Below, in pieces: positions 28,601 to 34,600 of a DNA stretch of 64,000 nucleotides; the first letter of the stretch is position 1, and each line of letters starts with the position of its first letter. The DNA is from Phoronis australis (taxonomy: Eukaryota > Animalia > Phoronida): contig NMRA01000006.1 of assembly GCA_002633005.1 (NCBI GenBank), positions 142,485-206,484 of the forward strand, given 5' to 3'. The notes beneath the pieces were generated by a model. It saw only the letters and a list, made by a program, of their open reading frames with translations, made no database searches and was not told the origin of the DNA. The position numbers and the translations under genes are program-made.

Positions 28601-31600
28601 TAACTAGGACCAGTAGCGGATGAGGGGGGGCTCAGACCCCAGAACGCGGCGGAATTATGTTTCCTTTTTTTGTCCACTGATAGATTTTCTGGTCCACATT
28701 CCCGGCTCCCGCAACTTTCACATACAATCACGCTTTGCCCAATTCCCCGAGGCAGCATGTTGGGCCTTCTTTATGGTATCCTAGATCCGTCACTGGTATA
28801 GTACTGTCCTGTTGAAGACTAACATTTGTTTGTTGTGGATTTTGAATTCTGCATGACCATCGTTAACCATTTAATTTCGTTTTCAGCGAATGCACCCACG
28901 ACCACCATTGACCCGCTTGGCACCCCAGCGACACCTATTGACTGTGACCCGCACCCGATGATCAGTGGTATCCACACAATCCCAAACGATGCTCTGACGG
29001 CCTCGTCCAGTTGGGACCGTAACCACAGTCCAACGAACTCCCGTCTTGGGGCTACTAGATCTGGTGAGGCAGCAACTCATGTCTGACGCGTATTGCAGAG
29101 TTGAGATTTGTGGGAAGAAAGGTGCAAGCAAGACATTGTCACGTCTTTTGTTGCCAAAAACCTGCATTAGTATTAAAATGTTCAGAAAACTGTACAGTTG
29201 GGTCATGTAAATTGTCTGCTGGGGGTGGTAAGTTTTGTTGTGAAAAAGTGTCAATTCCTGGCTTAGCATTGCGGTCGTGTGATTGTGTCCGCTAGCAAGG
29301 CATTTTACCTGCATTTCTCTAGTCAACTCAGCTCTGTATGAATGAGTACCAGTCATGGCTGGGAAGTCGTGTGATTGACTAGTGTCCTATCCATGGGGTA
29401 GACTAAGTACTTTTCATTTGCCAGAGCTTGTATTATGCTGCAGTTACACCATTCTTGTTATACAAACTCGGGTAAATACACGGTGCGCTTTATTTCAGAC
29501 TGGCGATCAACTGTTGATACACCGAATGCTTACAAGTACTTCCAGATCAACAACGCAGACATCAGCGGCGCTACCTTTGTGCGTCTTCAGATTAAAGGTA
29601 AAATTTTGAGGATTGAAAATGTAAGAAAATGATAACGGGGTAAAATCTCACCAATTGCGATGATCACAACCGCACTCCAGCACTGCTCAAACGCAAATTA
29701 TTTCCCACAAATGTGATTTAAAGTGCTCAGCAATGGGGCACGAATGTACCGACCAATCGCATATTCCCTGTAATTACCCAATGCATATTTCAGACGAACA
29801 GTGAGCGCAACTACTGTACTGAAGTTTTTCGTTTGAGACACTGAGTTTTGCACTACAGTCTTAGTATGGAAAGACGATGCTTGATATATAAGGTTGACTT
29901 GTTTTGAGATTTACTGATTACAGAATTTATTTTTATGAACATTTGCACTCTTGAAATGTTACTGAGATGGTGCATGAAGTTGAAAGTTTACTTAAACAAA
30001 GATTAAGTAATAACGGCTTAATATTATATTTTATTCCTAGTTTGTTATGTATTTCTAAAGCATGCAACGATGCCCACATAAAGCTGACGCCGACCACTGA
30101 CGCTAGCCAGGCCAATGACAGGAACGCCTACGAGGTCGTGATTGGTGGTTGGGGTAACGGCCAGTCGGCCATTCGTAAGGACGCCCAGTCTAAACCCATG
30201 GTGCAGGTGAATACACCCAAGATACTGGACTGCAAGAGTTTCCGCAAGTTCTGGATTTCATGGAACGGTGCTGTCATTCAGGTGAGAAAGCGGACGTGTC
30301 AAAATAGTGGTCACTTTTTGTTGTTTTTTTTCTTCAATAACTCCACCTATAGTTCACCAATTTCGAAAATTCAAAGACCGGTAGCATGTACTTTCCAATT
30401 TTGGTCATTTGTGTTTTATTTCTTTTGAAATTTCTAAGTTTGGGTGGCAAATACCGCATTAATGACGAGTCACGGGCAGTTATATAAACATCGACCACTC
30501 TGGGTCGCTGGTGGTCTTGTGCCAGTGGTCCTTTCATACACCGACAAATTAGCTGAAAAGCTGAGAGCTAACCTTACAACAGTTCAGCGTTATTGGCATG
30601 GTACAAGTGACCTAGTTTCCCATGGTTAAACATTTAATTCATGTTCCTGCTGTGCTCTCGCGAGATTCCATTGATTGTAGCACTCCAAGCATTATACAGA
30701 TCATACTTGCCATCTCCATGTAACCTCCTTGATGCCTCTGTCGAAAATTGACATTGTCATTGTAGAACCTGTTATTCTCATGTAAGTGTCTATGCACCGC
30801 CGACGAAACACCTGTCCTGTACATTCCTCCAGTGTTGGTACAACCGTTTTGTGCATCGTTCTAATTTTATGGGTTTCAGCTACATCATCATGGAGCCGTC
30901 TATTTCGAAGCCATGTCTGTTGCCAGTCATGGATGTTAATGCTGCTATGAATTAACGTTCCATTAAAGCCTATCTTCAACGGTAACACCTGTAAAATTGG
31001 TTCCTGCAGTATATTAAGAGTATCGCTCTGAGCCCACTAGTGCCATAATTTGCCAAATGTAACGAACTGTAAGGCGTATTGGCTTGCTTTTGTCTACGTC
31101 ACCACGAGAATCACCTTTTAATTCAAACAGCTGCACGCAATGGTGTTCTATTCAGAACCCTATTCAATACAACTGTTATCAGTCTTTAGCTGTCTGTGCC
31201 ACTATCTCTCATTGACGCAACATGGCATGAAAAGGCAGCTTCACCTATCATTGGACGGTCCAACATTTGAGTGATTGAACTCGCGTTTTCTTATTTTACG
31301 AAGGCTTTGCTATAACTGTCTGGTTAGCCCAATACGTCTAAAATAACAAAATTCCGTTGAAGTTAGGCTTTAAAAAAACTAAAATTTTGACTTAGATTGC
31401 TGCCCACTGTAATGCTGGTCTCAGCTTGTTCCTCACACACATGAGAAATGGTTTCTGGATTTGAAAAGACCTGTCAGCTAGCTATTGCATAAAATGACTT
31501 TCTGTCCTGAACTTGTTAAACCTGACCCTAGGCAATAACTTAATAGTTTGGTAAAATTTCTTTTAATTGGAGCTCAATTCGGTGAAGCCGTAAAATGTTT

Positions 31601-34600
31601 ATTTTGTCAGAATTTTCAACGAGAGTAACCAAGAAGGCAGTTTTACTTCATTATTTGAAAACTTCACATAGTACAACAAACACGAGATGAAATTTTGAAC
31701 ATTTTTGGCAGTACAGCGAGCATTAGAAAAATCTAAAACTGACAACTTTGGCTATTTTATTTGTTTGCATTTTAAGAAATTTTACCGTAATTACCAAATT
31801 CATACCCATTTCTTGAATTGTTATGGTCTATTTAATAACAAAAAATTTGTTGATGGAAAGCAGGACCAGTATTAAAGCTACTACGCCATGTGAAAGAGGT
31901 ATACTCACACAATCTGCTTTTTCATGCAGGTTGGCTCTGGTGACCGTGTCAATTTCAACCCAATTATGAAATGGTCTGATCCCAAGCCGTATGCCGTTGG
32001 CGGCATAGCCGTCAGTACTGGTTTCGGAGCCACAGGAAGCTGGAAAGTGTTTATCCCAGGAGGTGGGTTTGTAGCCTGTGTCAACTGAGGGCATCATGTT
32101 TGTATCAAGCAGTTGACTGTTTCGATTGTGATTTAGACGATTTATATAAAATCTCCAGCTGTTGTTCAAAAGGACACGAAAATTAGCAAATTAAATTAGG
32201 AAAATTGGCCCAAAACAATTTATTTTATTTTATGTAATATTTACAATAAGGGTAGCCCCATCAGTTCACACTGCTTTCCATGGGGGCCCTCAGTAAAAAC
32301 ATACAGACAATAAGATAAACTAACAGAATTACAAAATGAAAGACACTATTTAAATAATCACCGAAGCATAAGAAATTAAAATGGAAAGACCGATGAAACA
32401 AAATAAACAAATAAAATATGATAAATAGAAGATAATGAAAGTAAGACGAGATGATTCACTAAAATATAAATATAAATATTTGAAATAATAAAACAGACAA
32501 TAAATAGTTAATAAAAGTAAGACATATCAAATATATACACGCATGTATACACATGCACACTTATACACAGATACATAAATACATACATACACACATACAT
32601 ACATACATAGTACATAGTAACATACATACATAAATACAAACATACACACCAATACACACATATTGATATGAAGAAAAAAATAGTCTGACTCGAAAGCTGA
32701 TTTTCAAGCAAATGGGTTATGTGACAGTCGCTTTTTAGGCCTTTTAATTTCTTAAACGAGCAGGTTTTTCTAGTGCTCAAATATACTTAATTTCTTACAC
32801 ACCTGTTTCATCTTGCTGCACTTCAGTCTCGCTCGATCACTTCCGCTAGTCACATGCTGCCTCCACCACACCAATTTGTACGTCAACAAAATTACAAACT
32901 CCACGCCTTGTACAGTTATAATGAAAATTTTAAATATCTTCCATTGAAATTGGCGATTCTTTTACACTTAAAAGCCTTTCACCGATTTGTGGTAGTCGCA
33001 TCTCGCACCAAGTGTCAAACTTTTGCCAATTGATGAGACTGTTCAATTAAGGCAGTTGCTGGGAAGTGTAAACAGATCATCGTTTTCAACAGAACATGTT
33101 CTGAAGAAAAGTCGCTGCCTAAATACTCCAATGATAGCTGTTGGGTGCAGTAAAAGAATCGTGTAATCAAACTGTAAACTATAATTATCTAGCAAATTAA
33201 GCTACAATGCAATAGACAAGCAAAACCAAAACTAAAAGACAGTGATTGGCTGAACAGCACAGACAGCAGCGCCGTCTATTAGTAGAACATAACATGTAAC
33301 AATAGCATAACATGGTTTCAAAAGTCCCTTGAAGAATCTGCTGTGAAGTATGTCACTGTGATGTTTGCTCCACTCATGTTTGATGTTTCTGTAGTGAAAA
33401 GCGGATCGTGGTCATCAAAATTGAACAAGGTTGGTGAGTACATTCAGGCCGACTTCACCGTGCCCATAGCTATCAAGGGGATCATCACGCAAGGTCGGCA
33501 GGATTTAGGTCAGTGGGTGCTCACGTACAAGATCCAGTATCGCTACGACTCCTCCTCAAAGTGGGCCATGTATCAAGATCCTCCTGGCAAAGTCAAGGTG
33601 AGTGAAAGTTTCAATGATGAAAATGAAGTGAACGGACGTTGAACATAAATGCAAACCAAAGACACACTGTCACTGTACTTAGTTTCGGAACGAGGTATAC
33701 TACTTTGATAGCAATGAAATGTTTAAAGGCATTTGCCACTCTTTTTTACCGTTTTAATTAGTCTTTGATGTGTCTATATCACGTCATGCTCTGATCACCA
33801 CACTGGGCCGAGAGGCGAAAGGTTAACCTGTGAGGAAGGTAAGGACACAAAGTGATGCTGTCATCGGATTGTGCTATTAAGTTCACAAGTATTACTCCCT
33901 CTAGTGGAGTGCCAGTTGCTTCTTTTCTTAAGTTTGTACAATGCACATGGTGGATGCATGTCAATGTTCTTGTTAGTCAGTATTATATACTCTCTGGCTA
34001 TGTGGTCAAATGATTGACACTTGTTTTGCTGTTCTATGGATGGTGTGATGACTTTAATTGAGCTGTCAATCAAACAATCCAAATTAGTTTCTTGTGTACA
34101 GACGTCAGGCAGATGTCAATTTTACTCAACTCTGTTCCCCGGTCCCCAAACCTAAGAGGCTGGTTTTAAAAGTAAGCGGTTTGGGTTTTTGCGTCATTCG
34201 GACTGAGCAATTGAGAAGTGATCTTTAGAAGGAAATGGGTCGACTTAATTTTTCATTTGTTGTTGTGTATTTTCTCAGGTGTTTAAAGCCAACTCTGACC
34301 AAAACACAAAGGTCACAAACTCGTTGACGTTTCCCTTTGAGGCACGGTTTGTCCGTTTGTTACCGCAGACATGGAAGGACCATATATCTCTCAGGTGGGA
34401 GGTACTGGGGTGCATTGCAGGTGAGATATACTGGTGAAATGGGTTTTGGCAGCAGCTGTGTTAAGTCAAACTGCAATGCACAGAACATGTTTTCTGACAA
34501 CTTCATCGCAACCGAAGTTCTCTGCAACCAAATCAATGAATTCTATTGGCTTGAGACTTGGGGGTTTTGTTACAAAGGAGGCATGATGTGATGCAGTGTG

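Follow-up and report, generated by a model that had tools for sequence, protein, structure and literature searches.

The ligand end of discoidin (FA58C) domains is described, in excerpts of two sources, as three spikes (PMC4728063, PMC11257402). The same barrel is found in the C domains of factors V and VIII, neuropilin b1, CASPR2, and retinoschisin, in all of which the loop considered here spans a few residues. A second domain, Methyltransf_FA (PF12248), takes its name from farnesoic acid O-methyltransferase (FAMeT), whose methylation activity has never been reliably demonstrated in vitro according to an excerpt of one study (PMC10015273). In a 64,000-nucleotide (nt) stretch of the Phoronis australis genome (contig NMRA01000006.1; hereafter the window), we find these two domains combined in one receptor gene, in which the loop of the first discoidin domain, FA58C-1, holds a 151-residue FAMeT module. 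Alignment pairs that loop with ARL..AW in factor VIII C1/C2, and we take it to be discoidin spike 2. On balance, we favor the explanation that exon shuffling has repeatedly used the phase-1 intron in FA58C-1 spike 2 as a socket, through which a FAMeT module of lectin fold is here presented by an endocytic receptor with many lectin domains.

The exon structure of FA58C-1 places the FAMeT module inside the discoidin domain. All features described here lie on the plus strand. Exon 19 (28887..29063, phase 1-1) encodes a Pro/Thr linker and the N-terminal ~42 residues of FA58C-1, and it ends directly past the SRL motif. A phase-1 GT-AG intron (29064..29498) in the RL..W loop then forms the 5' edge of the insert. 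Exon 20 (29499..29597) contributes the opening strands of the FAMeT module as recognized by a local profile, exon 21 (30061..30281) contributes the core with its NDAH, YEVVIGGW, and FWISW motifs, and exon 22 (31930..32062) contributes the C-terminal strands. After a second phase-1 GT-AG intron (32063..33394) at the 3' edge of the insert, FA58C-1 resumes in exon 23 (33395..33597) five codons ahead of the conserved Trp and is completed by exon 24 (34279..34420), which encodes its C-terminal third, including the closing Cys. Exons 19 to 24 all have GT-AG ends, with phases 1, 1, 1, 0, 1, 0, and 1, and exons 20 to 22 together form a 453-nt, 151-codon cassette of phase 1-1. The six exons and the cassette thus stand as an earlier reading made from the window's letters alone (the sequence-only reading) had given them. 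RNA reads came from three stranded raw runs carrying the same species label, all from one study, with ~18 to 19% of each run read. They join exon 19 to its neighbors (28015>28887 and 29063>29499), support both introns flanking the insert, and continue through 33597>34279 (20 reads) and 34420>35104 (26 reads).

Profile searches agree with this arrangement. Submitted singly to Pfam, exon 21 matched Methyltransf_FA with 71.3 bits and exon 22 with 20.5 bits (cutoff, 24.2), while exons 23 and 24 matched F5_F8_type_C (PF00754) with 45 and 29.7 bits (cutoff, 28.2); exons 19 and 20, searched in the same way, returned no FA58C or other relevant match. We also made local profiles from 140 FAMeT and 148 FA58C domains. 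With these, the spliced product contains one complete FAMeT match (169 bits, profile positions 4 to 144 of 148) between two FA58C pieces, which is the complete insert and the split discoidin that the sequence-only reading had anticipated. The insert-less product gives a single uninterrupted FA58C match (191 bits, positions 2 to 153 of 153), the ordinary discoidin that in-frame removal of the insert would restore, and it aligns to FA58C-1 of the Owenia protein P0019 with 44% identity over 175 columns and 6 gaps. The insert retains 34 of the 38 columns conserved at ≥70% across the 140 FAMeT domains, among them D, H, E, W, N, and R positions. The same loop is crossed by single exons in FA58C-2 (35104-35270) and FA58C-3 (37786-37964), whose introns lie elsewhere, as had also been claimed. 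We regard the nesting of the FAMeT module within FA58C-1 as close to certain.

The two separated parts of FA58C-1 are predicted to re-form one discoidin barrel. When the peptides of exons 19, 23, and 24 were folded as three chains, the complex score was 0.93, compared with 0.03 for the best control; at least 98% of contacts recurred between runs, and the partners had predicted local distance difference test scores (pLDDT) of at least 90. The mark used for the complex score is reached by 51 of 78 solved pairs and by 2 of 108 mismatched pairs, and because solved discoidins exist, a pass speaks for likeness to known structures. For a complete nested unit, we turned to an AlphaFold2 model of the Owenia protein P0056. 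Residues 3 to 288 of this model superpose on the CASPR2 discoidin (Z 24.9, root-mean-square deviation [rmsd] 1.4 Å, 147 aligned residues), and the model also superposes on that of neuropilin, with discoidin matches at Z 22 to 25. Together with the split profile match, these models bear out the proposal that the insert is grafted onto a discoidin spike.

The site of insertion is shared with two Owenia fusiformis gene models, although the inserted module is not. In P0021 (CAH1796584.1), the same FA58C-1 loop holds a PAN domain (~80 residues, Pfam 42 bits), and in P0056 (CAH1796015.1) it holds a C-type lectin (CTL) domain (~130 residues, 57.9 bits). Both inserts start directly past the (S/G)R(L/I) motif and end directly before the conserved Trp. 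Since the loop holds PAN or a C-type lectin in Owenia, it is the site, and not the FAMeT module, that recurs; since the three inserts are nonhomologous and have unrelated folds, they presumably represent independent insertion events. In an unrooted tree of the three FA58C domains with inserts removed, the window gene and four Owenia proteins separate from five mollusc proteins with support of 100/99, and the tree leaves the branching order within each group unsettled. (Branchiostoma rows, which have two FA58C only, and P0153, which falls in the same cluster as P0019, were left out.) An insert is present in 3 of the 10 rows, or 3 of the 5 on the Owenia side, and the loop is short in the two other Owenia and five mollusc homologues. 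One of these "empty" Owenia paralogues, P0019, has a longer loop of 15 residues (residues 493 to 511) in which SRL occurs twice, perhaps through a small duplication where the intron lies. Module content also varies elsewhere in the family: a Kringle domain sits among the CTL domains of Owenia P0021 (residues 442 to 520), and lancelet MRC1-like proteins (P0114) carry SUEL and LCCL domains.

To place these cases among other discoidins, we used a set of 653 FA58C segments in 162 proteins, chosen by means of exon 23 and so no census of the domain. Seven collinear splits were found in five proteins, two of them at this loop. The other five, in three proteins, lie away from this loop and resemble either neighboring domains or errors in the models: the three splits of P0022 have the look of adjacent domains, that of P0093 the look of low-complexity filler, and in P0066, a Limulus hemocytin model, an FA58C is split by 460 residues (residues 1916 to 2377) at a later, phase-0 intron position, which could reflect either a faulty model or a further nesting.

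The loop intron is probably older than the inserts, judging from exon boundaries on other contigs. Six short exon-like open reading frames on eukaryote-like contigs match exon 23 only, with homology running from the loop to the Lys-Val position of the exon 23 donor. Of seven metagenome loci, one (L003, 850-900) has a phase-1 acceptor in the same discoidin loop, four lack an intron there, one has an intron further on, and one is seemingly intronless; none of the seven is clearly of this receptor family, and none has a FAMeT match.

What the insert might do is suggested by its predicted fold. As a structural stand-in we used P0001, a FAMeT protein sharing 40% identity with the insert across 146 columns, whose model (pLDDT 92.2) is all-beta with one 4-residue helix as assigned by DSSP. 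Its best structural match is CBM66 (Z 13.5, rmsd 3.5, 135 aligned). It matches galectins at Z 11 to 12 (LEC-6 at Z 12.2, rmsd 3.3, 126 aligned) with structural identities of only 6 to 12%, and we do not class the module as a galectin; legume-type lectin domains are matched as well. There is no methyltransferase among the matches listed, an absence that by itself excludes nothing, and sequence searches of the PDB found no credible FAMeT relative, the one lysozyme match being to a short repeat motif. By way of this all-beta stand-in, the insert is predicted to be a beta-sandwich of the galectin/CBM66/concanavalin A (ConA) type and not an alpha/beta Rossmann-like S-adenosylmethionine (SAM)-methyltransferase fold, in keeping with the non-enzymatic binding role proposed by the sequence-only reading. 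The first and last strands of a galectin-type sandwich lie side by side, which would suit insertion into a loop. The residues that the family conserves (D, H, E, W, N, R) may form the lining of a binding site. Among the 120 short FAMeT proteins listed, 15 carry a fused C-type lectin domain. We consider it slightly more probable than not that the insert binds glycans.

These observations suggest how the arrangement could have arisen and how it may work. The loop intron would have existed before the inserts, and each phase 1-1 module would have landed in it independently; that this intron is a reused socket we consider very probable. The loop would tolerate modules whose N and C termini are closely spaced, and the insert would project from the ligand face, where it may replace or extend the discoidin's own binding surface. 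The FAMeT module could then serve as an extra glycan- or ligand-binding head on a receptor that would capture glycans for uptake via a Tyr-based tail motif.

Several points weigh against this explanation. The FAMeT fold is that of the stand-in rather than of the insert itself, and the success of the three-chain prediction can stem from likeness to solved discoidins. The nested unit that was modeled is Owenia P0056 and not the window's own nested protein; its host halves are confident, but its CTL part is poor (pLDDT <50 at residues 102 to 162). Moreover, the alignment behind the model consisted of uninterrupted discoidins, which favors the barrel, and CTL rows were omitted from it as misaligned, leaving the nested CTL without alignment depth. 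The Owenia inserts are database gene models with putative intron phases. In addition, narrow searches found no second FAMeT-in-discoidin example. Longer relatives of exon 21 amounted to 2 matches among 40 candidates, neither with FA58C, and a region search with P0021 gave 2 matches among 228 candidates. PF00754 is absent from all 120 short FAMeT proteins listed, and in the sole protein of the discoidin set with both domains, Branchiostoma P0051, they stand side by side. Finally, the stand-in also matches SPRY, LamG, and thrombospondin domains, which are protein binders, at Z 9.6 to 11.3.

This last point bears on a different view of the insert, in which the nesting and the socket are the same but the module is one for protein, matrix, or surface adhesion. 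SPRY, LamG, and thrombospondin domains share the ConA-like fold, and excerpts of two studies report FAMeT domains in sea star adhesive proteins, where their role is given as unknown (PMC9382459), and one FAMeT domain in an abalone shell matrix protein (PMC6003135). Set against these parallels, the best structural matches are carbohydrate binders, the family-conserved residues are polar and aromatic (D, H, E, W, N, R), and the adjoining domains are of lectin type. We consider an adhesion role of the insert unlikely.

The sequence-only reading had further proposed that the cassette is skippable and that the graft may be switched on and off by splicing. If exons 20 to 22 were an alternative cassette, the animal would make both an ordinary and a grafted discoidin. 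As frame arithmetic the idea holds, in that the introns on either side are phase 1 and skipping would leave an open product with a normal 191-bit FA58C, and there is a precedent of sorts in insect famet genes, in which the copy number of pfam12248 varies by splicing, as an excerpt of one study reports (PMC10015273). The RNA, however, showed inclusion. The joint entering the insert, 29063>29499, has 21 reads with 14 start sites; 29597>30061 has 13 reads and 30281>31930 has 11; and the joint leaving it, 32062>33395, has 12 reads, all from run X2, with 10 independent start sites. These four inclusion joints and three others inside an intronic repeat make up the seven rows of the complete joint table over the insert region, in which, at the depth of this shallow, single-study sample and with joints of at least 3 reads listed, there is no skip joint 29063>33395. 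The 95% upper bound on skipping is ~12 to 34%, depending on assumptions. Among partial lists of RNA variants, five of six in exons 21 and 22 are synonymous, the sixth being R>K, and 10 of 12 are synonymous in exons 21 to 23. Inclusion is the main isoform in the sampled RNA and is mainly constitutive, a conclusion in which we have high confidence. With no skip joint listed, the switch is unsupported; rare skipping may have escaped notice, as joints with fewer than 3 reads are unlisted and the longest reported joint is 1,648 nt, compared with the 4,331 nt needed for the skip. We judge a splice switch improbable. The intronic repeat, at 30963-31460 between exons 21 and 22, draws many RNA reads on both strands at 90 to 95% identity and with loose ends, and is probably a multicopy element transcribed elsewhere; the X4 contigs gave coverage of repeats only.

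It could also be argued that there is no special socket, the FAMeT exons having landed once as a passenger and the Owenia cases being annotation errors. Artefact-like splits do occur elsewhere in the gene models of the discoidin set, as in P0093 and P0066. Yet both Owenia inserts are complete Pfam domains whose ends coincide exactly with the loop, both occupy one and the same repeat within one family, and because the gene models are collinear with the DNA, the PAN and CTL modules must lie physically between the discoidin halves. The loop is 4 to 17 residues long in 324 of the 326 full-length domains measured (of 410). We therefore consider a one-off passenger very unlikely. That the insert is an active farnesoic acid O-methyltransferase on the cell surface, as the Pfam name by itself would have it, has next to no plausibility given an all-beta stand-in model unlike the alpha/beta SAM-binding fold and a domain on the predicted extracellular side.

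In the host gene, exons outside 26.8 to 35.1 kb are predictions. A CTL profile, exon prediction, and tblastn indicate a type I receptor with five CTL domains, three FA58C, a WSC domain, seven further CTL domains, a Ser/Thr/Pro stalk, and a transmembrane (TM) helix. The five N-terminal CTL domains occupy 13358..28015 (local CTL profile; joints in 26805-28887 seen in RNA, the remainder predicted). FA58C-2 and FA58C-3, of three predicted exons each with coding-strand RNA depth, lie at 35104..39496 and have neither intron nor insert in the loop. The WSC and seven CTL domains are predicted at 39993..60433, and the last coding exon is predicted at 63248..63483, encoding the TM helix and a short tail. 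The tail contains FDNALY and YDNPAV, motifs of the Asn-x-x-Tyr and Tyr-Asp-Asn type with similar counterparts in Owenia, mollusc, and lancelet homologues; presumably they resemble the endocytic signals of mannose-receptor-type proteins. Twelve CTL domains by the local profile, one TM helix, and a short tail are traits of the mannose receptor family; Pfam listed no ricin-type or fibronectin type II domains in the eight homologues scanned. Of 911 hits, the best 150 have as their nearest proteins "MRC1/LY75-like" models of Owenia fusiformis, scallop, abalone, and limpet with the same domain plan, and P0021 is the closest row to the window gene (45% over 458 columns). Two assembly features were also noted. 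Within 50932-51693, two copies of a 385-nt stretch, 95% identical, flank a single N (51317), so that a CTL coding exon is present twice; this is likely a haplotype overlap at an assembly gap and not a true exon duplication. The same pattern is seen at 8963-10016, where a 531-nt direct repeat of 97% identity lies across a single N at 9492.

Domain insertion and phase-1 exon shuffling are already well known; what this analysis adds to the sequence-only reading is that the same loop holds PAN or a C-type lectin, neither related to FAMeT, in Owenia. A single loop that is empty in some paralogues and holds three unrelated modules in others amounts to a natural experiment in domain insertion, and it makes testable how phase-1 introns inside domains seed new receptor specificities in invertebrate recognition. 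In titles and the opening parts of abstracts from a mostly non-subscription literature, we found no description of nested discoidins, of this receptor family, or of the FAMeT fold. The predicted fold also supplies a concrete hypothesis for the disputed FAMeT domain, namely, a lectin-type binding module instead of a hormone enzyme, which touches arthropod FAMeT, sea star adhesives, shell matrix proteins, and human CPAMD8. More tentatively, and with rather more doubt than conviction, we suggest a combined reading in which the spike-2 intron is a natural plug-in socket that gave paralogues different recognition heads (FAMeT, PAN, C-type lectin) through repeated exon shuffling, and in which FAMeT domains at large, human CPAMD8 and arthropod "FAMeT" included, are unrecognized galectin-fold lectins and not enzymes.

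Compared with known systems, the window receptor presumably resembles MRC1, MRC2, DEC-205, and PLA2R in being type I, with numerous CTL domains in tandem and a short tail bearing Tyr motifs, but it differs from this vertebrate family in having three discoidins and a WSC domain in its middle. Its nearest counterparts are the Owenia MRC1-like proteins CAH1796584.1 and CAH1796015.1, which share the CTL-FA58Cx3-WSC-CTL-TM plan and have FA58C-1 split at the same loop; they differ in inserting PAN and a C-type lectin where FAMeT is found here, and their database titles, as shown, do not name the nesting. Proteins with PF12248, such as arthropod FAMeT, CPAMD8, sea star Sfp1/3/4a/5/7/8, and mollusc FAMeT-CTL proteins, have the same domain with its conserved residues in extracellular mosaics; in the proteins and excerpts covered, the domain is not described as nested, whereas in the window gene it lies inside another domain of a membrane receptor. 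In Discobody (PDB 4PT6), by its entry title, a factor VIII discoidin has been engineered into a scaffold for a new binding specificity, whereas in the window gene a whole natural domain has probably been grafted by exon shuffling.

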